A stretch of 61,527 bases of DNA, filler included, from Asterionella formosa (lineage: Eukaryota), in the NCBI GenBank assembly GCA_002256025.1. It is 20 parts of 20 records of this genome, joined end to end, with 100 filler letters (N's around TTAATTAATTAA, not from the genome) between each part and the next. Parts side by side here need not be neighbours in the genome. Positions count along the whole stretch, not along the records: positions 6,190 to 9,182 come from NKIB01014587.1; 19 more parts are not named here. One strand, 5' to 3'. This document shows positions 1,194 through 43,028 of the stretch, in pieces; position 1 is the stretch's first letter, and every line of letters begins with the position of its first letter. The position numbers and the translations under genes were made by a program. The notes beneath the pieces were generated by a model that saw only the letters and a list, made by a program, of their open reading frames with translations, had not been told where the DNA came from and did not search any database.

Positions 1194-2751
1194 CTAACCA
1201 GCACAAGTCACGCTCTCTTTACAGGAACTGCTGCAGTTGCAAATCAGTGGTGGGCAAACACCTATTTCTGCTAAAAGTGCGATACTACATACTTCTGTTG
1301 GAACTGTGCCTGTAAAATTGTTCATTCCAAGAGATAATCCAGCTGCCAAGAAAGTGAAATTTTAGCACAAACATTCAAGAAATATAAATTTAGGCCCAAA
1401 TAACTCACTCAATGCAGACATGAGACCAATTTCGGTGGGAATTATACCAGTAAACTTATTTTTCCCAATTTTAAAAACTGTGGCATTTGTTAAATGGCCG
1501 ATTTCTGACGGAAGTGCACCAGTCAACTGGTTTTCGTTTACATAGAAAATTGTTAGACCAGTCAAATATCCAATCTCTGTAGGAAGTGTGCCATTGAAAT
1601 CATTGGAATCTGCTTCAAAATCTGTGAGACTTGTCAAATATCCAATCTCTGTAGGAATGGTCCCAGTGAAGTTATTATAGCTGATAATCAAAGTCAATAG
1701 ATTTGTCAATAATCCAATCTCTCTTGGAAGTGTTCCCTTCAATGTGTTATTAGTCAATATTATTGAAATGACCTGGGTTTCATCTTCATTGCAATCCAAT
1801 CCAAACCAAGCACCACAATCATCGTTGATACTAAATAGCCACGAAGACCTGTTATTGACTTGGTATTTAGTAGAACCACGGTTGAGCCACTGGTCTCCAG
1901 AGGTTGCATAATAAAGGGTCACCAAAGCATAGATTTGGAGCAACTTAGCAGTATCCATCTTTTCTGTAGTACCTGGCTCACTTTCTAACCAGATCATTCA
2001 TTGCCTGCTGCTGTGGGGAGCCGTCAGTCAAAAGTGCAGCCCCATCATCAAACGACTTTTTAGATAGTAAGGAGAATAAAGCAGACGTTGGACTTGGTGA
2101 TGGAGGAACTGATGTTGGATTCGATGTGAAAGGATCAACTAACTCATTGCCTGACTTGTTCCGAGTAAGCACAAATGCAACTACAGCAGCAACAATCGCA
2201 ACAAGACTTGTGAGTCCACAAGATACCATGATGTTAATCATGCTACGGCGACGTTGGGCCTTCGCTTCAGCTTCAGCGTCGATGGCCGTCACAGTCGTAA
2301 ACCTAACAGGGGCAGAATCATCAACAAGAGTGGCATTCACGGCCTCCTGTTGGACTCCCTCTATGCTATGCATGGCAAGTGGTTGCTGAATTATTCCCTG
2401 GGACTCCACTAAAGACCATTCTTGCATGACCACTCCCTCCCACCGCGACTGCTCCAGAAAGTGTTTGTGGAGGTGGTGCTCCCAGTTCTTGATGCTCCAC
2501 CACCGCAGGAGAAACCCCTGCAAAATGTTACGCCCTCGTCCAGCCCTGTGGTTAACATGATGTTCCTTCCTATCAAGGCCTTCTCCATGTAAAAACTCAG
2601 AGTCCCAAGCTCGTTCTTCCTCCTTTGCTTCGTCAGCAAAAGGCACCCTGCTGGCATAATCGCTCTTCTGTTTTGCAGTGCCAGAAGGTTTCACTGACCT
2701 TACGTGATCATATTGGCTGCCTTTCTTGGCTTCCTTGCTGTCGTTGTTCAT
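1194..2751 (-). pseudogene. Single-pass transmembrane leucine-rich-repeat (receptor-like) protein, frameshifted
   Basis: TM helix (LTSLVAIVAAVVAFVL), SPQQQAM-IWL, ALVTLYYATSGDQW LRR cap, and several 24-aa plant-type LRRs (NxLxGxIPxEIGxLTxL). A GT-AG intron at 1408..1343 joins a last exon (GLSLGMNNFTGTVPTEVC...CAG*, stop at 1194). A CATT tandem duplication at 1995..2002 breaks the frame. Confidence 0.82.
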
Positions 2752-2998
2752 ACTGCTGCTGCTTGTATATTGTGTTTAACGCGCAGGATGATCACAACAG
2801 TAAGGCAAAGACAAGATTATGTGGAGAAGAAAAGAAAGAAGCATCAAACAAACAAAAACAAGCAAAACTTCGCAAGCAATATTCTCAAGGGAGGTCTGCA
2901 AAAAGAAGATTCCAATTTGCTTTGCGTATGTTGGAAAATACAATGTACAGGTGGGCTTTAGAAATACCCACTTACTGTTTTTTGGGAATTCGTCCCAG

Positions 2999-3098
2999 NN
3001 NNNNNNNNNNNNNNNNNNNNNNNNNNNNNNNNNNNNNNNNNNTTAATTAATTAANNNNNNNNNNNNNNNNNNNNNNNNNNNNNNNNNNNNNNNNNNNN
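2999..3098. other. Artificial contig spacer (first of 19)
   Basis: N44-TTAATTAATTAA-N44. Others start at 6090, 9183, 12275, 15367, 18456, 21545, 24631, 27715, 30798, 33879, 36955, 40031, 43106, 46180, 49253, 52325, 55393 and 58461. Confidence 0.99.
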
Positions 3099-3400
3099 CA
3101 CTTGTCGCTCTATTGATGGTAACAGAGATGCGGACAAGTTCAACAGTGAATACAAGAACAACATACCAATGAAAACAAGTCGACAGTGTGTGTACGCACA
3201 CGCCAAGCAGGTTTGAGGCAACGGACAGTTCCAACAAGCAAATGACGATATGGATATCAAATTTTTCCTACAAGCAAACAACAATGAAGAGAGCCACTTG
3301 CTTTCGCTCTCTTGATGGTATCAAAGATGCGGACAAGTTCAATACTAGTAAATACAAGTACAGCATGCCAAATTCAGAAACGAGCGATGATATGAAAAAG
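3099..3400 (+). repeat. Imperfect ~196-bp tandem duplication
   Basis: cacttg..cgctct.ttgatggta...agatgcggacaagttcaa...aatacaag occurs at 3099 and again at 3295. Confidence 0.55.
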
Positions 3401-3579
3401 AAATTGTAATCAGAATCATTCTATAACTATAGCTAGCTATGTGGACAGTAATCTGTTACATTTTCGTATCTCCTTCTATGCTGAATCTCAATAGTAGATG
3501 TAGTATCATGTGAGAATTGAAAATGTGAACAAGAACAATTAGAATGTGTTTGTTTATGGGTTGATTGGCGAGATCATTG

Positions 3580-3963
3580 TAATGCTGTTCACTGCACATG
3601 ACAATTACTCAAAGATATAATGATCACTTGACCAACAATTGAAGATGTTATTGCAAACAATCATTCCACTTGTCATCGCTAGTATTTCGTTGTTGTTTCA
3701 AAAATCGGAGTGATAACGGATGGAAATGACGAGCAAAATTACATTACTTTAGCTGGTACATTATCCTATCAAGAAATTCGAATACAGGAATCTAATAGAA
3801 ACAATACATATAATAATTAAATATATGTATTAAAAAGGGTTACTTTTTAAATTACAAGGGCATTTATCAAAATTATTAGATGATATAACGAAAAATTATT
3901 ATGATCAGATGATCACAATCCTATGATGCATCATGGAAATATGATAGTTTTTATTTGCAGACG
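3580..3963 (+). mobile_element. Terminus A of a Plavaka-like TIR transposon
   Basis: Aligns with 42783..43028 and with the reverse complement of 31289..31640. Ends in gatagtttttatttgcagacg. Confidence 0.8.
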
Positions 3964-3971
3964 GATGCCAT

Positions 3972-4922
3972 GATTTGCCCCTTGGTTTTCCAGCCCTGGG
4001 ATAGCCGAAATTGGCAAGGGGTCTACTTAAGGAAACCATTTTATATACTATCCAGATTTTAATAATTCATATCTAGAATTCACCTCGTTTTTGTTCGTCT
4101 CCTGAAAAAGTGACTCTGGCATTCACCTTTCACCATGCCAATCGTCGTCCATCATGACCGGTTTGAAGCGAAATCAGTTCCGCGATGACGCCAGTAGCGA
4201 TTTGTTGTCTAACGGATGCGGTTGGTTGTGGGATTGCTTGTCATCTCGAGGCATTTATGTAGTCGCATTGTCCGTATTTCGTCGGACAAACAAGGATATC
4301 GATTCATCTGATGTTGGTGGCAAGGTTTTGCTCCGGTCATGCATGTGATGATGCTTAACTGATATTCTACCGGTACTGGCAGTCATCTGGTCTACATACG
4401 TACGTGGTACTAAAAACAACCATGCATGGTTTAAGCTATACTTTAATGCTTACTTTGAACATGTTATAATATTATCTCTGTAGACTCAGTATTATTTTTA
4501 CGAGACCCGAATGTTAAATTATATCGTTCACATATTCATTGATTTTATGTACAGTATGCCCGATTTATCCTCACAATTAGTATAGTAGTTCTCACTCTAT
4601 CTTGCCTGCCTTTGTTCTATTCGGGCTTGCAATAGGCAATGTTCATCTTTCTTTGATCCTATCGTCTGCTGCTTGTTATGATAGTTGAAGCGGATCGGTG
4701 AGTACAACAGTGAAACACTGAATGTGGATTGTAGATCGTATTTACCATATCGACTTTCCGATTTGATTGCTTCCGTGGTTTGTTTTGATCACTTCCGTCG
4801 TTGTTTGTCGTTCCGCACTGTCGTTTTGTTTCGATTGTATATATCTACATAAGAACCAATGCATTTATCAATGACCACTCATTGAAGATGTGGTATTGTG
4901 CCGTTGTTGATCGTATTTGTTG
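3972..4922 (-). mobile_element. Internal fragment of non-autonomous TIR element X
   Basis: Reverse-complement match to about 59527..60477 and direct match to 18556..18733. Confidence 0.85.
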
Positions 4923-4985
4923 TAGTCTCAATTGGTTCATCCTGATTTAACAAAGGGGGCCAACTACGTGAAGAGCATTGCGAAT

Positions 4986-5417
4986 TCAGCAATAGAAATA
5001 GCAAGAATAAAAAGTCTTGAAGATGGGGCTGGGCCTGTTTCCATTGTAAGGATTGACTTTTATTATCATGTTAAAATTGAAAGTAACGTTCCCGGCCAAA
5101 CTACTATTTTCAGAGTCTTCATCTGCGAAGAACAAATGTTTGAGTTTCCTCTTCGAAAGCAATCTTTCTTTCTTTTCAATCTCTGCCACTATTATATCGG
5201 CATACTTCATTATTTTTTCTGGAGTATTATGAATCTGTTCAAATTCATCTGATCTTTGAGTGTATTCAAATGAATCATCGATTGATATCATAAGTTTCTT
5301 CATCTTCTTTTCCGAAAACATAAAGTCGTGTAGTGTAAACAATGGAAGTAAGTCACGTTTCTTGTTTGACTGATCCTTTGCATGAAATCCATGAAATGCC
5401 ATTTGGAAAGTTGTCAA
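4986..5417 (-). CDS. Hypothetical ORF, probably transposon-associated
   Basis: 143-aa charged ORF between a repeat and an AT-rich region; no recognisable motif. Confidence 0.25.
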   Translation of the reverse strand: MTTFQMAFHGFHAKDQSNKKRDLLPLFTLHDFMFSEKKMKKLMISIDDSFEYTQRSDEFEQIHNTPEKIMKYADIIVAEIEKKERLLSKRKLKHLFFADEDSENSSLAGNVTFNFNMIIKVNPYNGNRPSPIFKTFYSCYFYC

Positions 5418-6189
5418 AAGGCCAGCAGACTAAGATGTAAAACAGCGGAAAGGAAACGCGGTGCAAGCTTTTTGCGGCGCTTGTGGAGGTGCAGCTGGTG
5501 TGATGGTAACCGAGTGTAGTAATTGTTGAACAGAGCACTGTGTAATATGCATGTTCCGCCAGCGTAGTGTTTACACAATACACATGCCGGCATATATATA
5601 GCTACTATAACAAGGAAAAACGACATGACAATGAACGTGATGGCTGGTTGTTGAGGATACCGGTATGTGATATGCATCAATTCATATCACAAATCATATT
5701 TTAGTGATGTACATATCAATGCATCCATATACTTAGATCCTATCCACCGTATAATACTACTATCATATTAACTGTTGGCTTTTACTGTATACATTAAAAT
5801 TCGAATATATATATATATATAAATATATTAATTAACATACTTTATGATTTATTTATTTATTTTCTATGATGTATCGATAACACTTACGTACATATTTTAT
5901 CGTATTTTATTATCATTGTATTATCTTAACACGATCATATTTTGATCAAACTTTTATCATACACATTCTAAGAAATCATCATAGTTCTATGATCAATGTA
6001 TCATCGCTATGTGATATACTTTATTCAATATTATGTATAATACTTTGGTGATGTATGCATCGATGTAACCCTATCGTGATATCACATTANNNNNNNNNNN
6101 NNNNNNNNNNNNNNNNNNNNNNNNNNNNNNNNNTTAATTAATTAANNNNNNNNNNNNNNNNNNNNNNNNNNNNNNNNNNNNNNNNNNNN

Positions 6190-6254
6190 ATTTGATCATA
6201 TGATCGCCATTAAAAGATGCATCACACGAATTAGATGTTTTTTATTTGCAGATG
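6190..6254 (+). mobile_element. Diverged Plavaka-like terminus interrupting a copia gag
   Basis: gatgcatc...ttttttatttgcagatg resembles the family end TTTTTATTTGCAGACG. Confidence 0.65.
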
Positions 6255-6837
6255 TAGTTGCTGAAACAGTGTGTCAATGCATGGGCATCAGGGGATGCAA
6301 TGCTGTGGCCATGCGCTAAATGTTGTCATCTTTCATTTCCATGGTTACTCGGCCATATTGTGTGCGCAGGTGAGTGAGCATTTGGAGACAATTGACGCGT
6401 GAGAAACCGGATTGCCTTTCATTCAAGGCGTGTAGATAGATCAGCGGCGGCGTCACGGCAATAATTTGGCGGACAAGGGCTTGTTTGTCAACATCATGAT
6501 ATAGTTCGAAGGTCTTTTGGCGGACCAGAAGCAGGCGGTTGGCTTCAGTGATTTGTGGGCCGGTAGGCGCCTCCATGAGGAACACTGGTTCCACAGAGAG
6601 TACAACAGGGGGCACATAGGGGACTCCGGCAATCATGAGGTATGCAGCGGGAGTAACGGTGAGCATGAGGTGACCATTGAGTCCTCCTCCATCATAGGAG
6701 TGGACGGAGATCGCATTGGCATTGAGTTCCTTTTGGGCCGTTTCGATCGTGAGATAAGTTGGTTGCTGGGTGAGAGTGCCAAGGGGGGTCAGCGAGGGCG
6801 CTGGGAAGTTTGCCTGGAAGGCTCCTTCACTTGTCAT
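6255..6837 (-). mobile_element. Ty1/copia (CoDi-type) Gag, degenerate
   Basis: LNANAISVHSYDGGGLNGHL, QITEANR and LTHLRTQYG motifs typical of diatom copia Gag. Premature stop at 6316; truncated by the insertion ending at 6254. Confidence 0.8.
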
Positions 6838-6866
6838 GGTGACAAGTCAGCCTAAATTATCAGTTC

Positions 6867-7031
6867 TATTGAAGAACTCACTAAGCTACTAACTATAATG
6901 GTAATCAATGAACTGATAATTTATGAGTGGTTTAGAGACAGTTGTTGCTTCGGGCTGAGTGGTCATTGGAGTGACATCATGCTGCATCAATAAGTTGGGA
7001 AACCTGTAGGAAACCGTTGGGGTTCTCAACA
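6867..7031 (-). mobile_element. 5' LTR (~165 bp) of the CoDi element
   Basis: Inverted termini TGTTGAGAAC...GTTCTTCAATA, ending 30 nt upstream of the gag ATG. Confidence 0.7.
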
Positions 7032-7520
7032 CCAGGTACCGTAGCTATTTTTGTATATAAATATGATATGCATGATGCGTCCTATATGTATTGATTCTGC
7101 GACCATAATACTTGATTTTCTAGTGACTACATTCAAAGTAGTCAATATGGAATCCTACGTTTAGGTAACTTTGGAAAAAAAATACCTAAACGTAATGCGT
7201 TCGGGAAACTTATTGGGATATGGGCACGGAATCCCGTAATTGTAATGCGTTTGCGTACGGTTTTTCACTCCCGATAGCATCGTTTTTTAGGGTTGCCGAA
7301 ACCAAAACACTGTTTGGTTGGCGTTTTGGTCCACCGTTAGCAACGACCTGAGCGATGCCGTTTTGCAACACCGTGGATTTATCTGCTGTGCGTTCTGAGA
7401 ACCTCCGACAAATACCGGTAGGTACTTTAAGAAATCTAGCAGCGATCATCGCACATCCCTATTATCAAACTAAGTAATTTCTTCTAATCTAGGAAGGGTA
7501 TCGCTAAACGAATAAGAATT

Positions 7521-8204
7521 ATGGACGAGAAAATGAGCAAAATTCTGATGGAATCACCACCAGGCCACTTTGATTGTGTTCTGAAAAATATCACGGCTCT
7601 GAAACCAGGGTCGCAGTACAACGAGACACTATCACAATATGAAGCGAAAAACGGAAGAATCTACCTTATTGCCATTGAAGAAGGAGAAAAGCACCCGCTC
7701 GTTTCCACTTTGAAAGAGCAGCTGTTGTCCCACCAGGAAAAGTTCTTCTCAGCTACTGGAGTCTCCATGGGCTACAAGGTCGAATCCAATGGAAACAATA
7801 TTTTTGTGAGCTCGTACTCGGAACTTGATGACAAAACAAACTGCTTTTCTGGCTCCTGGTTTTCCCAGTGGAAGGTCAAAACCGACTTTGCATCTGAAGC
7901 ATTGGTAAGTGGAAAGGTGATTATCAAGGCCTACGCTTATGACAACAGCAACATACAATTGCAGACAACCGAAGATTTTGGGGATACCGCTGTCGCGGTG
8001 GAAGGCAACGATCTATCTAAGTCTTTCGTTGCTCAGATTTCCTTATGGGAGCAGCAAGTTATGGACAGCTTGCAGCAATTGCACGATGAAATGAATGACA
8101 AGCTGAAATCACTTCGCCGGGTTCTCCCCGTTACTCGCACTAAAATGGATTGGAACGTCATCACGCATCGAATGGTAAAGATCTTGGGAGAAGTGGCAGA
8201 GTAG
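7521..8204 (+). CDS. CAPZA: F-actin capping protein subunit alpha
   Basis: N-terminal SPPGHF, central SGSWFSQW and YAYDNSNIQL, and the C-terminal hallmark KSLRRVLPVTRTKMDW. Confidence 0.92.
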   Translation: MDEKMSKILMESPPGHFDCVLKNITALKPGSQYNETLSQYEAKNGRIYLIAIEEGEKHPLVSTLKEQLLSHQEKFFSATGVSMGYKVESNGNNIFVSSYSELDDKTNCFSGSWFSQWKVKTDFASEALVSGKVIIKAYAYDNSNIQLQTTEDFGDTAVAVEGNDLSKSFVAQISLWEQQVMDSLQQLHDEMNDKLKSLRRVLPVTRTKMDWNVITHRMVKILGEVAE

Positions 8205-8255
8205 ATTGATAACCGTGTGTCCAAGAAAATATTTATTTTTACTGAACATTCTCGT

Positions 8256-9110
8256 CTAGATAAGATTCGTACATGTGGCTTTAAATATTGCTCCGCCGGT
8301 CTCAGAGGCCTGCCTTAGATGATCCAAAAGCTCGCAATCAGAAAGTATTGCTCCAACCTCTGATATGTCGCTATCAATCAAGTTCCATTGTGAGCTCATT
8401 GGTGAAATACCGTTACACCTAAGAAAGCGATGCACCCTCGAGATTGCATACCAGTGTCGTCCCTCCTTAAAAAGTTGACCGAAAAAGGGTAGGAATCTAA
8501 AGATGCTACGGTCTTCGTTTGAAACGTTGATAATAAATCCCATCACATTGTTCTCAATCTCGCTTTTGTCGCCTTTTCCGTCACTAACGAAGCTGGGTTG
8601 TTCTCGCACCTGCCACCACAGAAGTGCTACGCCTCTATTGTGCAAGGCAGTCTGTAAGACTTCAAAACTATAGTTTCCAAAGAATATAGTTCTGTGATTA
8701 CTATTGATTCTTTCGTAGAGATTGGGCCCTCTGCGTCGACCTATTTCATTTGATACGGTGTGAACCAACGAAAGCAGATCATTCTCGAGGACAGTCAGAC
8801 CATCTGCAATTTCGTCGAATTCAGCTTTGGTTGCCGGCAGTAACTGTGCTGCACATAGTTTCAGCTCCCTTTCCCCACATAGCCACTGATACTTTGAATC
8901 ATGTTCATCTTTCGATAGCTGCAAGAGGTTGTTGACCGCATGGACGGCGCAAAGTTGCAGATGTTGCTTCTCGTGCACAATTATTACTCGTGACAGCAAA
9001 TCACCGTCCATATCATCCTCCTTTGCTTTCAGTTTACGGGTTGGCAGATTCGGAAATTGTCGTGCCAATGCGAGGACCGAACTAAATATGTTCGAAGCTA
9101 GCCACACCAT
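8256..9110 (-). CDS. Josephin-domain deubiquitinase (JOSD-like)
   Basis: HEKQHLQLCAVHAVNNLLQ (catalytic Cys), GNYSFEVL, RHWYAI (His) and WNLIDS (Asp). The true start may be the downstream MDGDLL. Convergent with CAPZA, 51 nt apart. Confidence 0.9.
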   Translation of the reverse strand: MVWLASNIFSSVLALARQFPNLPTRKLKAKEDDMDGDLLSRVIIVHEKQHLQLCAVHAVNNLLQLSKDEHDSKYQWLCGERELKLCAAQLLPATKAEFDEIADGLTVLENDLLSLVHTVSNEIGRRRGPNLYERINSNHRTIFFGNYSFEVLQTALHNRGVALLWWQVREQPSFVSDGKGDKSEIENNVMGFIINVSNEDRSIFRFLPFFGQLFKEGRHWYAISRVHRFLRCNGISPMSSQWNLIDSDISEVGAILSDCELLDHLRQASETGGAIFKATCTNLI

Positions 9111-10837
9111 TTTCTTTCAATGGTTGCTCCTCGAAAAAGAGATCATGTACTGCTTGCTTGGAAACAGTTCTGATAAATTTCTNNNNNNNNNNNNNNNNNN
9201 NNNNNNNNNNNNNNNNNNNNNNNNNNTTAATTAATTAANNNNNNNNNNNNNNNNNNNNNNNNNNNNNNNNNNNNNNNNNNNNTAATTTGAAAGTTCAGAA
9301 TCACTCATTGCTTCTTTGCTTAAATGCGGTTATTGTTGAAATAACCGGGAAATACATCGGTTAGCCAACCAATCTGCATTCACATCCGATACGCCTACGG
9401 ATTTTTGCAACTAGGATAAAAGGCTGGGTGTTTAATAGCCTTTTTGGGAAATGCAAAAATAGGTTTAAGTGACATCCTCTTGTTAGTAACAAAACATTCA
9501 TAGTAAGTCTGATGTATAGTAATACTATCATTCAATAATCTTTATAGTGCATTTTTACTAGCCTAGCTACATGATTCAAAAATAGTACTATCAACTTTTG
9601 CAACAACAGAGGGATCCATTTTAGCTAAAAACAAATGTCATGCTGAATTCGCTGCTAAAGCGGATGAATCTTCATAACCATGTAAGGATGAAACTTGAAC
9701 TGAATGTTTCCATTTGTAGTGATGCAGGTCAGATGATATTTTGTAGTAACAACGAATAAGGTCATTATGGATTTCTTGAAAACTGGTGTGCTCATCTTTG
9801 AGTTCCTTGTGGATATCTTGAAGACTGATGTGCTCATCTTTGAGTTTGTCATACTTCACCTGATCACTTCAATTGCAAAGCTTTTCGAAAACAAACATAG
9901 GGTGAATATTATGGTTGGTCTCAATAGCAGCAACCTTTCTTGAACCGGAATCGAGTGAATCATCATCGTCATTCTCACTGGCAGAATTCAAGACAGAATA
10001 TATGGGGGTAGAACGATTGAAACGAACCTTTGTAGTATCTGTAGTAAAAGGAGGATTTATGTTTGTTGGAGCATATGGGGTGGTAGGTGGTGTTGCACCA
10101 CCAAAGGCATCATGAGCAGTATACTGCTTTTGCTTTTTATTAAAATAACTGGTATGAAAGGTTCCAAAATCTGCTATGCATGATCACTCGCTTTGGAGCC
10201 AAATCTGGCAATCGCCTTGCAACTGCTGCATCTCGCACTGGTTTCGGAGACATTGTATAACTGGTGTGGTCAGAAAGGACAAGGAACAGATGAAGTGTCG
10301 CTAAAAAAGGGGTAATGGGAGATTAAACATGCTTGCTATGGACAAATAACATACCTGTAGGTACTTACTACACACTTATGCATATAAAGATGGTAAATAT
10401 ATATATATGTAGTAACTGGAAAAAGATCATACTACCAGGTACGTACATCATCAGAGCATGTCCTTCAAGAAGATGTATGCAGTTGTTCAAAACTACTGGT
10501 ACCTTGTTACTACGTACTCCTAGCAGTCCTTACTTGTGAACATGATAGAAGTAGATGAAATAGATTTCTACTTACAACATTGCATGTTGTAAAATGTATT
10601 AGTACTGTACACCACGATACTACAAACACTAGATTTATGATCATAAAAAACTAATTGTAAGATCATTTTACGTCAAATTTTGTACAACCGCAGTACATAT
10701 TCACACTTCGCATTCTAGCCCTAACCATTTTTCACGTATATTTCACATCCATGATGGGTCTTAAATATATCATTAACTATTTCTCCATACCCAACTGTTG
10801 TACAACCTAAATTTGTACTCTATTTTAGGTCATGGTA

Positions 10838-12374: not shown

Positions 12375-12616
12375 GCAGAGTATCTACGATGCCAGTATAC
12401 TGCGAGCCTGCAAAAGTATTTTTTAGGCCTGCAGTTATATACCAGTATACTGCAGCCAATGGCTGAACAGTATGGTTTTTCGAAACCACCGAAACAGTAT
12501 ACTGGTATACTGATCCAGCAAATCCCGGGGAGTTCTTATTCAATACTGCAGTATACTGCCAACCCAGTAAGTAATCACCGACCTATGATACCGATAGCAG
12601 CTAATCCTACACACTG
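12375..12616 (-). mobile_element. End of a TIR element or MITE (hAT-like CAGTG terminus) with periodic palindromes
   Basis: CAGTATACTG at 12393, 12443, 12495 and 12549. Ends in ...CACACTG exactly where the copia RNase H similarity breaks. Confidence 0.55.
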
Positions 12617-33878: not shown

Positions 33879-34098
33879 NNNNNNNNNNNNNNNNNNNNNN
33901 NNNNNNNNNNNNNNNNNNNNNNTTAATTAATTAANNNNNNNNNNNNNNNNNNNNNNNNNNNNNNNNNNNNNNNNNNNNAGTTCCAGAGATCACATCAGAA
34001 CAAGGGGATGTCATGACTTTGACTTAAGAATTTGAGGCAGAAACTCTCAAAAAAGCAATCTTCCAACATTGTCATAAGCACTTTTGGAAAACATTCAG

Positions 34099-35957
34099 CA
34101 CTTAAGGATATGAAGCAATCGTACCCCATACAGGTGGTGGAGTACTCAATTGCTAATCGTATTGATGATGAGGCAGCGTTCGCATGGTGGGTGCCGACTC
34201 TTCTAAAGAAACGGGACCGAGTCCTAGAAAAGGTAAAGTCTAAGTATTGGCAGCGAACTCATAAATACGGTATACGGATACCGAAGTCCGTCGAAGAGGC
34301 GTTAACGATTGATAAAGCCAATGGCAACACATTATGGTGGGACGCCATCTGCAAGGAAACGAAAAACGTGCGACCGGCATTTGAAAAGTGGGAAAAGCGA
34401 GAGGGAGACCTTCCGCCAGGGTACCAAAAGATAAGGTGTCATTTCGTGTTCGACATCAAAATGGGCGAAAACTTTCGGCGTAAGGCGAGACTAGTTGCTG
34501 ACGGCAGCCGGACGGAAACGCCCGCAGCCCTGACGTATTCGTCAGTTGTGTCGAGGGACTCAGTGCGCATTGCCTTATTGGTTGCTTCATTGAACGACTT
34601 ACAACTTCTTGCTTGCGATATTCAAAACGCTTATCTAACCGCAGATTGCAGATAGAAAATTTACATAATTGCAGGGCCGGAATTTGGGTCGGAAGCGGGA
34701 GCTACCATGGTGGTGAAGAAAGCGCTGTATGGGCTCAAATCTAGCGGTGCGGCATTCAGAGCGCATCTCGCAGAAACCCTCCATGATTTGGGTTACTTGC
34801 CCACGAAAGGGGACCCTGATGTATGAATTCGACCGGCAGTAAAACCGGATGGGTTTGAGTATTACGAAATGATTCTTGTATATGTTGATGACATTCTTTG
34901 CATTTCAGCGCAGCCTCGAGCGACTATGAGCGGGATACAGTCGACCTTCAGATTGAAGGATGATAAAGTCGAGAAGCCGGAAAATTATCTGGGAGCCCAG
35001 GTAATGCAGAAAATAGTCGGCGGAGTTGAGTGTTGGGCCATGACTTCCGAGCAGTATGTCCAGGCAGCCATCGCCAACGTATAGTTCAAACTCGACGAGT
35101 CGGGTCAGCGGCTTCCAACGAGGTGCACTACCCCATTGCAGGGGAATTATAGACCGGAACTGGATATTTCTGCCGAACTCAAGATTGAAGGCGTGAGATA
35201 CTACCAGGAATTGATCGGCGTGCTCCGCTGGGCAGTGGAGCTTGGACGAATAGACATTGCTATGGAAGTTTCTATGTTATCTACTCACCTAGCGTTGCCG
35301 AGGAGCGGACACTTACAACAGGTATATCACATTTTCGGATATTTGAAAGCGAAACCCAAGAGGACGTTGATCTTTGATCCGACACACCCCGATATAAACG
35401 AGTCCAGGTTTGTTAAATGCGATTGGCACGACTTTTACAGGGGAGCGCAGGAGTCTATTCCAGGGGACGCACCCAAGCCCAGAGGTAACGTTGTAACTAC
35501 TCACTGTTTTGTGGATGCGGATCATGCAGGGAATAGGGTGACGAGGCGCTCGCAGACCGGGATACTGATTTTTGTGAATCGGGCTTCAATTATATGGTAC
35601 AGTAAGCGACAGAACACTGTCGAGACATCGACGTTTGGTAGCGAATTTGTGACTTTGAAGATCTCGGTCGAACTGATCGAGGCATTGAGGTATAAGCTGA
35701 GACTGTTTGGAATCCCAATCGATGGACCGACTAACGTTTTCTGCGACAACGAGGCGGTGACGAAGAACACGATTCATTCAGAATCGACTTTGAAAAAGAA
35801 ACATAATGCGATAGCGTATCACAGAGCGAGAGAAGCTGTGGCGGCAGGGATGATTCGGGTAACGAAGGAAGATGGAAAGACTAATTTGGCTGATGTGCTG
35901 ACGAAGCCATTACCCCAAATTACACGAGAGTATTTGTGCGACAAGTTCATGTATTGA
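34099..35957 (+). mobile_element. Ty1/copia (CoDi-type) pol RT-RNase H, young but with three in-frame stops
   Basis: RKARLVA, YSSVVSRDSVRI, CDIQNAYL, KALYGLKSSG, LVYVDD, FVDADHAG, STFGSEF and NLADVLTK in one frame. Stops at 34653, 34824 and 35082. Confidence 0.95.
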
Positions 35958-36329: not shown

Positions 36330-36640
36330 TGTTCTGCCGACAACACTAGCGTATTTATTCGGAGGACTTCATAGCCAGAGTCACAGACCTGTCCAATGCT
36401 GAGTAAAGAACAATTGTGAAGACCAGGGACAATGCGAACATGCCTGGCAGCAGGGAAAAGCATGGGTAAATCTAACTCAGCCTCATGAGTAGAAGTAACA
36501 TGGTGACCATTAAGAAATTGAATGGTAATAGGCGTAGTGGTGGTTCGTGCTTTGATGACAGGGAGATCAACGGTGGCGGAATTTCCAGAACTAACAGAAA
36601 AAGCAATAAGCGTAATGGGGGGACAAGTAAGCAAAGTAGA
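36330..36640 (-). mobile_element. Older copia protease-region remnant beside the young copia
   Basis: PITIQFLNGHHVTSTHEAELDLP..AARHVRIVPGL..SLLSIGQVCDSG. Confidence 0.75.
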
Positions 36641-36907
36641 TAAGCTTGTGTTATTAGTATTAACAATGTCAACTTGCTCCCCTTGATATCAGGCAGGTGG
36701 CGTAGGCAGTGTGCGGTTGGTATGGGTACCATCGGTTGGTATGGGTACCATCGCTGAAGATATGGACGCTGCCGCCCATGCATTGATCAAGTGTGGCATG
36801 AATCTGATGACCAGAAGAGGGATGGTTATAGGTGGCACTGGTGTGGTTGGGGTGCTTGGTGAGACAATGAGTCCAACAATATCCTAATTGTACATTGTTG
36901 TATACAT

Positions 36908-36954: not shown

Positions 36955-37343
36955 NNNNNNNNNNNNNNNNNNNNNNNNNNNNNNNNNNNNNNNNNNNNTT
37001 AATTAATTAANNNNNNNNNNNNNNNNNNNNNNNNNNNNNNNNNNNNNNNNNNNNACGACATGGAAAATACAATCGTAAAAGAAGTAAAGTAATAACACTA
37101 ATAATGACAACGAAAATTGAGATCGCCGATAACAACATGAAGTCGCGTTTTTCTTGCGAGGTGAAGAACTCTCTCATTTTTCACAAGACGGAAATAATTG
37201 TCATATTAATACATCTTAGAAAAATGTGCGCTATCCTGTAGAACTAAAGAAATTTACTTAGGTCCATTATAAGGGAAATCTCTTCATTGTCCTGGGCCCC
37301 CCTTAAGTAAAATCAGTCAAATTCAGTCACGGCAGTGTACATT

Positions 37344-39541
37344 GGGGGGTCCAGGACAATGAAGTATACGGTAGGCTGAAAATAGTGGATTTTACCGGTC
37401 CGCAATGAATCTTCCACTTACCTTTGGATTTTGGTCTACGCAAGGTAACTTTGGTGCAGTAGAGAAACTGGTAGGAAACGCTGAAGTTATTGCAACCGCT
37501 CTTGCAATGAAAGAGGCGTGTCAGGAGGAAGTATATCTGACACTGAATGTGCATGAACGAGGAGACTGGGCTGACAAAGGATGTGATTTTCAGTGGTGGA
37601 ACAGTCTGTCTGGTATGGATCGCTTGCCTGTACTGAATACGCCTCGACTCACTGTTAGGTACGATATGGGCTGGCAGCAGCGTTCCAGCGGGAATAAGTA
37701 CAACTCTGTAAGTGGACATGCTTTTTGTATTGGCGGCTACACGAAAAAGATACTAGACAACAGAGTGAAATCTAAGGTTTGTAATGTGTGCAACAGGGCC
37801 AGACGGTACAAGAAACCAATCAATGAAAATGTTTGTCCCAAGAATCATGTAACTGGTAGTTCGAAGGCAATGGAACCAGATGCTGGTGTAGAAATGATGA
37901 TTGATGCAGTCATGAAAAACAATGTTATCTACTCTACAATCATCTGTGATGATGATTCTACTATTTGAGCTGTTTCTAAGTGGTCCTATAAGGAGTTATT
38001 GAAACTACAGCCATCCTTCCAATGGCCAAGAACATGGAAAGGATTTAAAAAATCGGACAAAGGATGCCTTCCACTGACTGTACCTGAACCTACATTTCTG
38101 TCTGACCCATCCCACAGAGTACTACGGGTCCTTCTCCGCCCAGCTTTTCATGAAATCCAATGGCCCGGTCTCCCTTGAGCGTCCCTCAAAAGCAGATTGT
38201 CTCCGGTTGAAAGTTTACTGTGGCGCTTGGATAAAAAACGAGAACCTCTCTCTGGCCGAATTCAGTATTTCCTCCAAGGCACCAATCAATCATTTATTTG
38301 GCTGCCACGATTACTACTGCTCTGAGACACGGTGCCCTGTAAAAGCAGGAAAAATGGTTAGTAACGGAAGATATCATGACAAGGAAAAGGAAACAGATTT
38401 ATGCGAAAGGTTAATGCTGCATGTTGCAGCGAAAGTCGAAGGCGAAAAGCTACTATCATTGCATCGTCCCTTTGACATGCAGATTAATGAGGTAATGAAC
38501 AATTCAGTTTCGCAACGATGTCCAAAAGACAAGGTGTTTGCGGGATCTGGAGGCCTTCAATATCGAGTGGATTTGGTTGCTGGGCAACAAAATACACAAG
38601 GAATGTATACAAACAATTTGTAATGCTGATGTCAGCACTGCAAGAATCCTTCTGGAGACAAAAAGAAAAGCGACAAAGTGACAATAGAGCCTATAAAGCA
38701 CAATTCAAACAAAAGAGGAAACGAAGCCGAAAAATACATGCAGCACGATTCGAAACAGTCAAACAGGAAAGGCAAGATAACAAATCAGGTAAGACTTACG
38801 GTTCTGGTGTTGCGCTCACCAGAAGGGAAAATCAGGAAACAAGAAGGAAAGGAACAAATGTCTGCAATCATTGTGGCCGCAATGATCATCAAAGGAAAAG
38901 CAGCGCACTCTCTCCATTCAATGTACCGGCAGGCAAAGTGCCTGATCACACTGGTATGCGTATGATCAATGATGATCAGCTACCTACTACTGTGGATATT
39001 GTTCCGGCCAACACCCAAGAAAATTTTACATGTGCATCTAGTGTGGCCAGCTTGGGTTTGCAAGACCGCGCAAACCAGCCCAATCAATTGTCGGTAAGTA
39101 ATTGAACTTGACCAATCAAAATATTTATATGTAGTGAAGCGTGCACTTACAATGGAATTTTTTGTACAGGCGATTGTAGGACGAAAAATTGAATCACTAG
39201 GCTCCTATTCCGATGATGACGTTTCAGCGATTAGTGATTCTGATTCCGATGTTTTGTTGACCATTGAAAAGGGCGATATTGTCGAATTTTTGGACGACGA
39301 TAGCTCAACGTTGGCAGGGTTTGAAGAAGAGTAAAGTACATAGGTAATCTTCATATAGCCCAGAAGTTAACTTTCGGCGAGAAACTGCAGAAAGGAACTT
39401 CGGTTTTTTTACTAGGCCAAATAAACGAGTTAGCCCGGTAAAATCCACTATTTTCAGCATAGTTAAAAAACCGAAGTTCCTTTCTGCAGTTTCTCGCCAG
39501 ATCCTATATCCTGACGATATATAGCGTTGACCTATACCCCT
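37344..39541 (+). mobile_element. Kolobok/Mutator-like (PF20700-type) transposase element, 5'-deleted and frameshifted
   Basis: YDMGWQQRSSG.KYNS.SGH, KSKVCNVC, CPKNH.GSSKAMEP, CDDDST, SDPSHR, HLFGCHDYYC, QINEVMN and a C-terminal CxHCG..DH knuckle. Element boundaries are inferred. Confidence 0.78.
39376..39498. repeat. Perfect 34-bp inverted repeat
   Basis: ggcgagaaactgcagaaaggaacttcggtttttt at 39376..39409 and its reverse complement at 39465..39498. Confidence 0.95.
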
Positions 39542-40130: not shown

Positions 40131-43028
40131 AGCAACCGTGTTTTTTATGCATATGGTCACTGTCGACATTGCATGCAGGAACATCGAGTTCCTGGAATAC
40201 ATAGTGAAACTATGTATTGCGGTAGTGCATCTAATCATTCAAGGAAAGAAGTTAATGTCTGTGTAACTGCAGCATTCAGGGAGAGTAGACAACAAGAAGA
40301 GATTATGTGTCCTATCCTTGAATCAATTGGCCACAATCATCCAATTCATGACGACAGAGACGATTCAGTTTATAACAATATTCAGTCACAACAGGACGAA
40401 CAATTGAGACTAAAAACTCTCCAAGGGTTGTATTCAGAAACCATGCAATATTCAGATTTTCAAGATTGCACCGGCTTTCTCCCTGAAAATGCAATGGAAA
40501 TGCCCCTTCCTCCTCAATTTCAACTTCCAAGTAAACATTCTCTGAACATGCATCCAATTGAATTATAACTCATGTTATTCCTCAACAAGAATTATCTTGC
40601 ACCAGTTTACTTTGATCATCTAATGAAATGGCTGTTCAAGGCAAAAGCAATGAAATATTTTGATGGAAGGTATCAAGCTCCATCCTACCACACTTTGAAA
40701 ATACGCATGGATATTTCATTTCCACCAACATTAGCTGGTGGTCAACTGTTGACCAAACAAATACAGATTAATAACAATTCAAATATGATCATCCCACGCA
40801 CACTCCATTATTTCGAACCAGTACAGCTCATGGCAGGATTGCTACGTGATTCCGATATCATGCAACATTTTTTATGTCACCCACAAGTGAAACTTACAAC
40901 TTGTGGAGAAGGCATGCATATATGACGAAGTAACTTCTGCGACTTGGTTTGAAAATGCATTCAACAAATCTCCTGCATCAGAAAATGGAGTGTTGAAGAC
41001 AGGGTGTTTATTTGATGCCCTAGCAGTTTTCAGTGATGGTACACCTATTGATAAACAAATGAAACATTTTGCTGACAATTTTAAACTTAAGGTTGATGGA
41101 TGGCAATGAGTATCTCTTTTGCCAGACATTGAAATCAGTGATCTGGAGAAACAAATGAATAATAAGTTATCTGGTACCGACTTGTCCTTATGTAGACTCG
41201 AATTATATCATTCTGTTACAGGATTTCTATTGTCGCCTTTCGAAGAGCGATCCAAACAAGTCATACGATATTTGGGTTCATGGTCTTGGTATGACAAAAG
41301 TTTATTTCCAGATTGGAATGATCATTGGTGATACAAAAGAACACAATAAAATTTGTGGCTTCAGGGGTGGTAATGGATGATATCGACGATATGTTTGTCG
41401 TGATTGCTGGGTTTCAACTGAGGATGCTGATAATGTGAACGTCGTAAAGTGTCAGGTGTTAAAAAGTTTTTAAACAAATTTCTTGACAAAATTGCATATC
41501 CCGATGGAAAATTACCATGTATTTCACCTGAGCCGAGTATTGTGTCTCCCAATCTAATGGCAAATATACCTAGCTACGCAACAGCAAACGAGTGGTGCCG
41601 TGTTATATCGCATAATCCTATTATGCCTGCACTAATAAATCATTTTTTTGGTGGTGACTTAGAAGGATTCACTTATTTGGTGCAATTCCATTTGAGGTTC
41701 TTCATCAATTACTACTTGGAATATTTAAGTTTGCACATTTTGGAATCTTTGCTAGGCAACATCATTGTATCCGGAATCATTCCTTCGAAATCAATTTCTT
41801 TTGAAATACCCTCATTTTTACATTGATGGTATTTTCTCTAATCATCTTCTTTTGTTTGTTATCTGTATGTAATGAATCACTTACAAAAACAATTTTTCGT
41901 GCCAAGGCAAACTGCCTTGCTTGTTTCATATGACCTTGTTAAAATGTCATGCTTTAATCGATGTAATTGTCCGTTGACACCACGCTTACTGGGTGGCTCG
42001 TTTCAATTTGTCTTTCAAAAAAGACTTCAAATATCCACCAAAGAAATTAAGAGGAGATCCGAACTTCCTAATCAGATGAGGATAATATTTCATTCCATGA
42101 AATTTTGCCATTCGTAAGCCAATTTGAGATATCATTTCCCGTTGGGGACCAATCATAATCTTAGTAGCTGACATAAATCTATCTCTTCACCCTTTTCTCT
42201 AAAATATCAATACATTTTGATGCATATTGTGGTATGAATAAAGTTGTCATTGATAGATATACATTTCCATAACAGCAATGTGAAATAATCCTTTTCTAGG
42301 TGCATGTTCTCTGAACCCGCCCATCATTCCACCCATTGAAAAAATAGTTAACAGACATAATCCGGGAATTTCTTGCCCTGACATTTTCGACAAAGCTGTC
42401 ATCCCAGATCTGTATGACAATTTTGGAAATCTCACGATCGCTTTGCCTTTCCAAATGACTATTGATATATCTAGCACTTTGTTCGAAGTATAGTTTCGAA
42501 AATACATTTCTGGTGCTGGTACAAGTGTTGGGTCTTGATTTTTGCCAGCCATCTGCCATCTCCTCAGTCATCAAGATGTGGGGACAGATTTTGTTGGTCC
42601 GATAATTGTACAAGCTTGTACAATTATCGGACTATCATCCCTGAAGAATGGACATGTTTTTTTAAGAAAGAATTTCTCCAGATATTCCAGAAAAGATCTC
42701 CGATCATAAACGTAACACTGAAACAACAGACTCTGCTTTTCTTGATCAAGAGCAACCGAAGAAATGGGAAAAGACCAGTGATGACGGATGGAAATAACGA
42801 GCCAAATTACATTACTTGAACTGGTACATTATCCTACCAAGAAATTCGAATACAGAAATCAAATAGAAACAATACATATAATAATTAAATAAATGTAAAC
42901 AAAAGGGTTACTATTTAAATTACAAAGGCATTTATCAAATTTATTAGATGATATAACGAAATATTAAGATCAGATGATTACAATCCCATGATGCATCATG
43001 GAAATATGATAGTTTTTATTTGCAGACG
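40131..43028 (+). mobile_element. Degenerate Plavaka (CMC/EnSpm-related) transposase element with an internal inversion
   Basis: Plus strand: YDEVTSATW, FSDGTPID, IGDTKEHNKICG, CRDC, FGGDLEG-LFGAIPFEVLH. Minus strand, about 42613..41900: RQSDR, FPKLSYRSG, FHGMKYYPHLIRKFGSPLNFFGG. TIR ends at 43028. Confidence 0.8.

Follow-up and report, generated by a model that had tools for sequence, protein, structure and literature searches.

We analysed a 61,527-nt stretch of DNA of the diatom Asterionella formosa (assembly GCA_002256025.1), hereafter the window, and find on its minus strand, within the contig piece at 6190..9182 (NKIB01014587.1), what its sequence identifies as the 5' terminus of a Ty1/copia-type long terminal repeat (LTR) retrotransposon, in a copy that is old and dead. 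The bases that directly follow the LTR are perfectly complementary to a stretch inside the LTR, this stretch directly follows an initiator-like motif, and the complementarity is kept by compensatory change in three families. The best-supported reading of these observations is that this copia-type lineage probably primes reverse transcription with its own RNA, in the manner of the Tf1 element of Schizosaccharomyces pombe. The features of the module, given in element sense, are the following.

7032..7036, minus strand: candidate 5-bp target-site duplication CCTGG, 5' copy (from the flank of RNA-library contig X6 record 20)
7031..6867, minus strand: 5' LTR, 165 nt (RNA-library contig breakpoints and terminal inverted repeat)
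6921..6927, minus strand: CTCATAA, conserved initiator-like motif with the predicted transcript start at T6923; invariant in the window and in the related metagenome loci L001, L002 and L003
6910..6923, minus strand: predicted self-primer TAAATTATCAGTTC, first 14 nt of the predicted RNA and start of the repeated region R; complement of 6866..6853
6905..6909, minus strand: ATTGA, 5' half of the inner helix in the minimum-energy fold; RNase H cut predicted at 6910/6909 by analogy with Tf1
6873..6904, minus strand: loop in the unique region U5 with a small internal hairpin (minimum-energy fold); TTAGTG and GTT conserved in relatives
6868..6872, minus strand: TCAAT, 3' half of the inner helix, which together with A6867 forms the last LTR bases (reading, fold and alignment)
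6867, minus strand: unpaired A, last LTR nucleotide and first template base for the predicted primer (bulge in the fold)
6853..6866, minus strand: predicted primer-binding site (PBS) GAACTGATAATTTA, 0 nt after the LTR end, start not TGG (reading and script)
6837, minus strand: ATG of gag (sequence reading)
6280..6837, minus strand: decayed gag remnant with an open reading frame (ORF) at 6837..6319 (173 codons), a TAG at 6318..6316 and similarity on to 6280; 78% identical to residues 1-184 of the related protein P0001 across the stop

Direct reading and an inverted-repeat script agree that the minus-strand stretches TAAATTATCAGTTC (6923..6910) and GAACTGATAATTTA (6866..6853) are perfectly complementary; beyond the bulged A6867, five further base pairs form between ATTGA and TCAAT. 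The 5' arm lies within the LTR, 43 nt upstream of its end. The in-silico criterion for self-priming of Neumann et al. 2019 asks for at least 10 bp of complementarity whose start lies 0-5 bp past the 5' LTR (PMC6317226); the complement found here is 14/14 bp at offset 0. The RNA of 6924..6838 folds into one long hairpin of -27 kcal/mol, compared with -12.9 ± 2.8 kcal/mol in 200 shuffles (z -5.07), none of which was as good. Besides the primer/PBS duplex, one adjacent duplex of 5-6 bp and the inner U5 hairpin are predicted; downstream of the PBS, a third duplex lacks conservation. Perfect inverted repeats of at least 14 nt with a loop of at most 100 nt occur at five loci in the window, compared with a mean of 0.03 and a maximum of 1 in 100 first-order Markov shuffles of it, and the arithmetic chance that a 14-mer complementary to the first 14 post-LTR nucleotides lies inside a 165-nt LTR is ~152/4^14 = 6e-7. 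We conclude that the 14-bp inverted repeat is real and non-random.

The position of the repeat relative to the LTR was determined with assembled contigs from RNA libraries. Seven RNA runs gave matches, each covering 0.05-0.15 of the stretch as assembled contigs whose ends cannot show RNA starts; four of the runs (X1, X2, X3 and X6) were aligned to 6206..7250, and three of these (X1, X3 and X6) bear on the LTR ends. X1 record 2 spans 6311..7031 unbroken and stops at 7031, X3 record 17 spans 6873..7032, and X6 records 20 and 21 match as far as 7032, beyond which they run on in unlike sequence, which in element sense ends purine-rich (...GGGTGAGGGT) and resembles the polypurine tract before a 3' LTR. 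X6 record 20 matches down to 6867 and differs from the window beyond. Because the contigs of three runs break at 7031/7032 and X6 record 20 breaks at 6867, the LTR corresponds to 7031..6867 and, therefore, the PBS-like 14-mer begins at the first post-LTR base. The LTR termini, 5'-TGTTGAGAAC...GTTCTTCAATA-3', form an imperfect terminal inverted repeat and lack TG...CA. An earlier, sequence-only reading of this DNA had placed the 14-nt complement, the 5-bp ATTGA/TCAAT extension and the bulged A at the coordinates given here, all of which direct reading and, for the 14-nt repeat, the script bear out; its LTR end at 6867 was a bare assertion and is now backed by the breakpoint of X6 record 20 and the terminal inverted repeat.

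Past the LTR end, the flank of X6 record 20 starts, in element sense, with CCTGG, the same five nucleotides that precede the LTR in the window; from the sequence, CCTGG looks like the target duplication of one old insertion that would also be present in a related strain. X6 record 20 is itself a 3'-LTR-type copy, with a pol end and the purine tract upstream, in which the 36 nt of 6923..6888 are replaced by 4 nt; to judge from these sequences, this LTR and that of the window may be partners from one old insertion, the contig coming from a related strain.

We compared the module with related elements. A scan of metagenome contigs with a gag alignment (A1) yielded three loci, L001, L002 and L003, from 282 pattern matches, with gag sequences 31-32% identical to that of the window. 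The same scan gave 0 relatives from 98 pattern matches in prokaryote genome contigs and 0 from 37 in viral contigs, and a scan of viral contigs with a pol alignment (A3) gave 0 from 83. L003 is nearly the same as L002; accordingly, the comparison involves three independent families (the window, L001 and L002/L003). The contigs of L001 and L002 run in the order pol end, GAGGGTG, LTR, leader and gag, which probably reflects two LTRs collapsed by the assembler, and that of L003 starts within the LTR and contains only LTR, leader and gag. The LTR termini of L001/L002 are homologous to those of the window (TATTGATA...TATCAATA / ...TATCAAGA) and follow the purine-rich GAGGGTG. The unique region U3 is mostly unalignable; the aligned module consists of CTCATAA, exactly 14 nt to ATTGAT (invariant), a short U5, and an end in ...TCAATA or ...TCAAGA. 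The two arms read as follows in the three families.

Window: after CTCA, TAAATTATCAGTTC; after the LTR, GAACTGATAATTTA; 14 bp, perfect complement
L001: last bases of the 14 nt after CTCA, ATATTTAATTAC; after the LTR, GTAATTAAATAT; 12 bp, perfect complement
L002: last bases of the 14 nt after CTCA, ATATTAAATCAC; after the LTR, GTGATTTAATAT; 12 bp, perfect complement

In L001, L002 and L003, the last 12 of the 14 nt pair with the post-LTR bases, giving 12/12 bp at offset 0. Over the 12 shared pairs, the arms differ at six positions between the window and L001 and at two between L001 and L002, and each difference is matched on the other arm. Of the 19 pairs in the four-row alignment of the module (A2), eight are changed on both sides, none on one side only and eight are invariant; the remaining three (the two outermost and the pair beside the bulge) depart by unpaired cells only. 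In total, 91.9% of the cells in A2 are paired, as against 29-47% with the partner shifted by 1-3 columns, and its covariation score was reached by none of 500 shuffles. The 12-14 bp duplexes contain no G-U pairs. The fold is equally pronounced in the three relatives (z -6.6, -5.1 and -5.2; 0/200 shuffles as good in each), and every family has unpaired base(s) at the LTR junction, A in the window and L001 and GA in L002/L003. Counted by hand, R and U5 together comprise 57, 46 and 53 nt in the window, L001 and L002, respectively, compared with 108, 213 and 128 nt for U3, and the leader from the LTR end to the gag ATG is 29, 25 and 22 nt long. As a negative control, the DNA motif CTCATAA-N10-CATTGATTNCC was scanned in viral contigs (8 loci) and prokaryote genome contigs (90 loci): none of these 98 motif-only loci has a downstream complement of at least 10 nt (93 have less than 6 nt, four have 6 nt and one has 8 nt), and they were rejected as relatives of the element, being chance matches without the complement.

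These comparisons bear on two alternative explanations. That the inverted repeat arose by chance, or through misassembly of one decayed copy, is suggested by the copy being dead and lying on an unplaced 3-kb contig piece. Set against this are the rarity of such repeats in shuffled windows, the recurrence of the same architecture in the independent metagenome contigs L001, L002 and L003, and the unbroken coverage of 6311..7031 by X1 record 2, an independent RNA-library contig; together they make chance or artefact so improbable that we treat it as excluded. Alternatively, a host tRNA or an internal tRNA fragment could prime reverse transcription, the way Drosophila copia and the plant lineages Osser and Bianca are primed, and the match to the LTR be secondary; priming by a tRNA or half-tRNA is the rule in Ty1/copia elements (PMC6317226). 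Here, however, the post-LTR bases start with GAA, GTA and GTG (window, L001 and L002, respectively) and in no family with TGG, and the PBS differs between families (6/12 positions between the window and L001, 2/12 between L001 and L002) yet always matches its own LTR. Moreover, only 2/12 (L001), 3/12 (L002) and 4/14 (window) of its bases are G or C, a content unlike that of cytoplasmic tRNA sequence. We consider priming by a tRNA very improbable.

The assignment to Ty1/copia comes from relatives of the window copy, which comprises only an LTR and a decayed gag remnant and is cut off by the end of the contig piece at 6190. Compared with its relatives, which are 381-396 amino acids long, the window gag has two one-residue insertions and the premature TAG; by its sequence, this copy is dead. 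The window gag ORF has no Pfam family match. Among 715 candidates in the 'longer' length class, 10 related proteins were found at E <= 1e-3: five metagenome proteins of 325-396 amino acids (aa) that are 76-82% identical to the gag ORF, two more at 55-57%, and three others at 35%, including P0010, a gag-pol protein of 1701 aa; the identity of the window gag to P0010 and L002 is 35-37% (E 1e-16 to 1e-17). The contigs that carry the closer relatives P0001-P0007 measure up to 11.6 kb. P0010 contains, in this order, Pol_BBD (497-577), SH3_retrovirus (922-983) and RVT_2 (1336-1459) at E 3e-5 to 3e-4, which is the order of copia elements, gag-PR-INT-RT-RH, and its best Atlas clusters have RVT_2 in 10/10 cases. 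The gypsy-type layout, with an integrase and a chromodomain at the C-terminus of pol, was not found: the L002 pol ends ~340 aa past RVT_2 and no integrase family matches there. We conclude from the sequences of P0010 and L002, rather than from the truncated window copy, that the family is of the Ty1/copia type. Membership in the Tf1/sushi group of Ty3/gypsy chromoviruses is ruled out by SH3_retrovirus preceding RVT_2 in P0010 and by the RVT_2 assignment of all 10 best Atlas clusters.

The pol of L002 has two further characteristics. Residues 650-701 of the translation of 2519-5251 give Tudor-domain matches (best E 2.6e-5, below cut-off) in a stretch that follows the integrase-like part and is left uncovered by the BLAST alignment to P0010; by analogy with the chromodomain of chromoviruses, this stretch may provide a copia element with a chromatin-reading domain for targeting. 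The L002 gag (1424-2518) and pol (2519-5251) lie in the same frame with a single stop codon between them; P0010 is one fused ORF of 1701 aa.

We suggest that the element would prime as follows. Transcription would start inside the 165-nt LTR at ~6923, between the A and the second T of the conserved TCAT initiator, and the first 14 nt of the RNA, folding back across an R-U5 loop of 43 nt, would pair with the PBS, the 14 nt directly after the LTR. The end of this duplex would be marked by the adjacent 5-bp helix and the unpaired LTR-terminal A. The RNase H of the element would then cut after C6910, opposite the bulged A6867, to leave a 14-nt RNA primer, the 3' end of which reverse transcriptase would extend from A6867 to generate minus-strand strong-stop DNA. 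Because plus-strand strong-stop synthesis would copy the primer, the PBS would be rewritten from the 5' end of the RNA in each cycle, and the arms would therefore stay perfect while drifting, without G-U or half-changed pairs. With a leader of only 22-29 nt, there is no room for another primer site. Regarding the predicted start, an initiator-like consensus TCAH(+1)W has been proposed for diatoms and is present in 68% of promoter flanks (PMC4686930). CTCATAA fits this consensus, itself a loose one, and +1 then falls on T6923, at which the 14-mer begins; to us, the weight of the motif would lie in its conservation beside the primer.

The same hairpin could have a different function. As a conserved RNA structure of R, U5 and leader, it might serve in packaging or dimerisation, hide a signal in R-U5 (at the 5' end alone, the 3' arm being outside the LTR), or act as an initiation scaffold like the retroviral U5-leader stem. 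Some other primer would then be used, with the Conserved Hairpin Site of fungal GalEa elements as a parallel. A strong, conserved fold with compensatory change is expected of any functional RNA helix, and the fungal copia element GalEa has a conserved hairpin at the PBS position, the mechanism of which is left unexplained in its description (PMC5445492). Against such a role, the leaders of 22-29 nt contain no alternative primer site, the 3' arm begins in all three families at the first post-LTR base, where the 3' end of a primer must define the LTR end, and the 5' arm directly follows the initiator-like motif. Similarly, the counts of zero for both G-U pairs and one-sided changes fit copying from a template better than they fit selection for RNA structure alone. 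On balance, we regard a purely structural or scaffolding role as unlikely.

Several points weigh against priming by the element's own RNA. The link between hairpin and priming is one of sequence and fold only, which also favours a structural role. X1 record 2 runs through 6924 to 7031 and gives no support for a start at 6923; this contig could represent read-through, DNA in the library, or collapsed reads of the 3' and 5' LTRs. Counting from CTCA, bases 3-14 form the duplex in L001 and L002, rather than bases 1-14. Base 6907 differs in X1 and X3 contigs that represent closer relatives, which would break one pair of the inner helix unless 6870 differs as well, and no change at 6870 is found in these contigs among the matches listed. 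In the LTR variant of X6 record 20, the primer is missing together with half of the inner helix (6923..6888), which would be simple decay if this is the partner LTR of the same insertion. Strong-stop DNA would share at most 43 nt with the 3' R after cleavage, so that R would be short. Every Pfam match to the pol domains of P0010 and L002 scores below the curated gathering cut-off. Finally, the compensatory changes come from three independent families only, and their shared ancestry inflates the shuffle statistics. With these points taken into account, self-priming remains in our judgement the probable mechanism. Separately, we note that X2 record 10, a 536-nt contig containing gag and leader, ends at ~6906-6909, beside the predicted cut between 6910 and 6909; as a single contig end, this is not evidence.

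To our knowledge, self-priming has been demonstrated experimentally only for the gypsy elements of the Tf1/sushi group. The primer of Tf1 is 11 nt, similar in size to the 12-14 nt predicted here. As in Tf1 and Tf2 of S. pombe, the PBS lies right after the 5' LTR and is complementary to the predicted start of the element's own RNA rather than, as it seems, to a tRNA. In Tf1, the self-primer is at the 5' end of the RNA, the PBS lies just after the 5' LTR, and an extra duplex forms between PBS-adjacent and LTR sequence (PMC10085805); the layout predicted here corresponds to this description. Unlike Tf1, the present lineage belongs to the Ty1/copia superfamily, with an RVT_2-type reverse transcriptase and the integrase-associated domains before it; its fold would be a single uninterrupted hairpin, bulged where the LTR ends, instead of a three-duplex 'pretzel'; and the LTR of the window element, an element known here from sequence alone, ends in TA and not CA.

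Within Ty1/copia, the plant families Houba and Osr-1 have been proposed to self-prime, and a prediction to the same effect covers the whole TAR lineage (PMC6317226). The present elements resemble the TAR lineage, as described there, in being copia-type and in having a 5' LTR stretch complementary to the post-LTR bases, here over 14 bp at offset 0; unlike TAR, which we compare by its description only, the window gag matches no Pfam family and the relatives found are all metagenome proteins. The sequence-only reading had inferred self-priming against the background that copia elements normally use tRNAs. In view of Houba, Osr-1 and TAR, as reported in the same source, the premise that they do not self-prime is outdated. 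The inference itself has gained from the copia-type assignment of the family and from the relatives: the check that the reading had itself named, that complementarity be kept in related elements, came out in its favour, with perfect duplexes of 12-14 bp in three families and 8 of 19 pairs changed on both sides.

A further structural parallel is GalEa, in which both 9-nt arms of the Conserved Hairpin Site lie downstream of the LTR, 12-41 bp apart and with a conserved A/A mismatch, CHSeq1 being palindromic with the last A of the LTR; its authors report having found no Tf1-like complementarity to the RNA start, and place GalEa in branch 1 of the copia tree together with CoDi-like diatom clades (PMC5445492). 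The window element shares with GalEa a copia-type identity, an apparent lack of a tRNA-type PBS, and a conserved hairpin that occupies the PBS position and is interrupted at the LTR junction by a bulge or internal loop, and differs from the definition of the Conserved Hairpin Site in that its 5' arm lies inside the LTR, beside the predicted start. For the CoDi elements of Phaeodactylum and Thalassiosira (groups 1-7), the published account gives an LTR of 153 bp for CoDi4.4 and termini without TG...CA for CoDi3.2, CoDi4.2 and CoDi4.3 (PMC2806351). By description alone, the window element is like CoDi4-type families only in its short 165-nt LTR and its non-TG/CA (T..A) termini. GenBank accessions of the CoDi1-7 reference elements are given in PMC3587641. 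The main text of the CoDi paper (PMC2806351) contains no mention of 'primer binding', 'tRNA' or 'self-prim', and a full-text search found no report of self-priming in diatom or stramenopile elements, which is not proof of absence as most subscription journals lie outside that search.

The window consists of ~20 contig pieces of ~3 kb each, ordered by falling length and joined by N44-TTAATTAATTAA-N44 linkers (2999-3098, 6090-6189, 9183-9282 and onward); features on two sides of a linker are thus not genomic neighbours. The piece that contains the element also carries two genes.

8256..9110, minus strand: Josephin-domain gene (Pfam E 3.8e-20; assigned to Eukaryota in the Atlas)
7521..8204, plus strand: F-actin-capping alpha gene (Pfam E 1.1e-30)

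On the minus strand, both genes are followed by the short repeat-like terminus, the 29-nt leader and the gag-like ORF, which runs to the piece end. The window contains no second LTR or second copy of the element terminus, the sole other match being an unrelated 60 nt. A search of 6190..9182 against Rfam (E up to 0.1) gave 0 matches, and ARAGORN detected no tRNA genes across the window. Just upstream of the LTR, 7083-7250 has a contig depth of up to 853, very high in all four RNA libraries, and the contigs over it diverge from the window on both sides; by this pattern, the segment is either a repeat or strongly expressed.

A second fragment of the same gag family lies elsewhere in the window, at 36374-36896 on the minus strand, and covers the zinc-knuckle region (54% identical to residues 328-368 of P0001). 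The same piece contains an N-terminal pol fragment and, on the opposite strand, an RVT_2 fragment at 34023-34655 (plus strand); no LTR/PBS junction is found in this piece. The four other perfect inverted repeats of the window lie at 12438-12509, 37282-37364, 39376-39498 and 42597-42632, with arms of 14-34 nt. By eye, and with no ORF or protein search made there, neither an LTR end nor a gag start is seen in the stretches of 226-261 nt around 12438, 37282 and 39376. The repeats at 37.3 kb and 39.4 kb each adjoin a motif of ~23 nt that is common to both, in opposite orientation and with one base different, and the sequence of this motif suggests a repeat like those of miniature inverted-repeat transposable elements.

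The mechanism proposed here is of a known kind and would not be the first case of self-priming in copia elements; what would be new is its occurrence in a copia lineage of microbial eukaryotes. The start of reverse transcription decides on what in the host a retrotransposon depends, how its ends are rebuilt and how annotation programs detect it, most of which seek a PBS of the tRNA type. Self-priming, if true, would account for the missing recognisable PBS, and LTR finders that rely on the PBS would miss or mis-delimit such elements in algal genomes. The module would also be very compact, with an R-U5 of 46-57 nt and a leader of 22-29 nt, and could serve as a small model structure that is easy to mutate.

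The idea that the first LTR retrotransposons self-primed via a 5' hairpin and that tRNA priming came later has been raised before (PMC3601003). In this context, one may speculate that single-hairpin self-priming is ancestral in the copia branch that contains CoDi-like, GalEa and Ty elements and that the GalEa hairpin site is derived; in the ancestral form, the first 12-14 nt of the RNA would pair with the post-LTR bases and an unpaired LTR-terminal base would mark the cut. We consider this scenario decidedly unlikely; if true, it would provide support at the sequence level for self-priming first and tRNA priming later. Irrespective of ancestry, if the lineage described here self-primes, it would be a second, unrelated copia lineage to do so, and the mechanism would be more widespread than assumed, or older.

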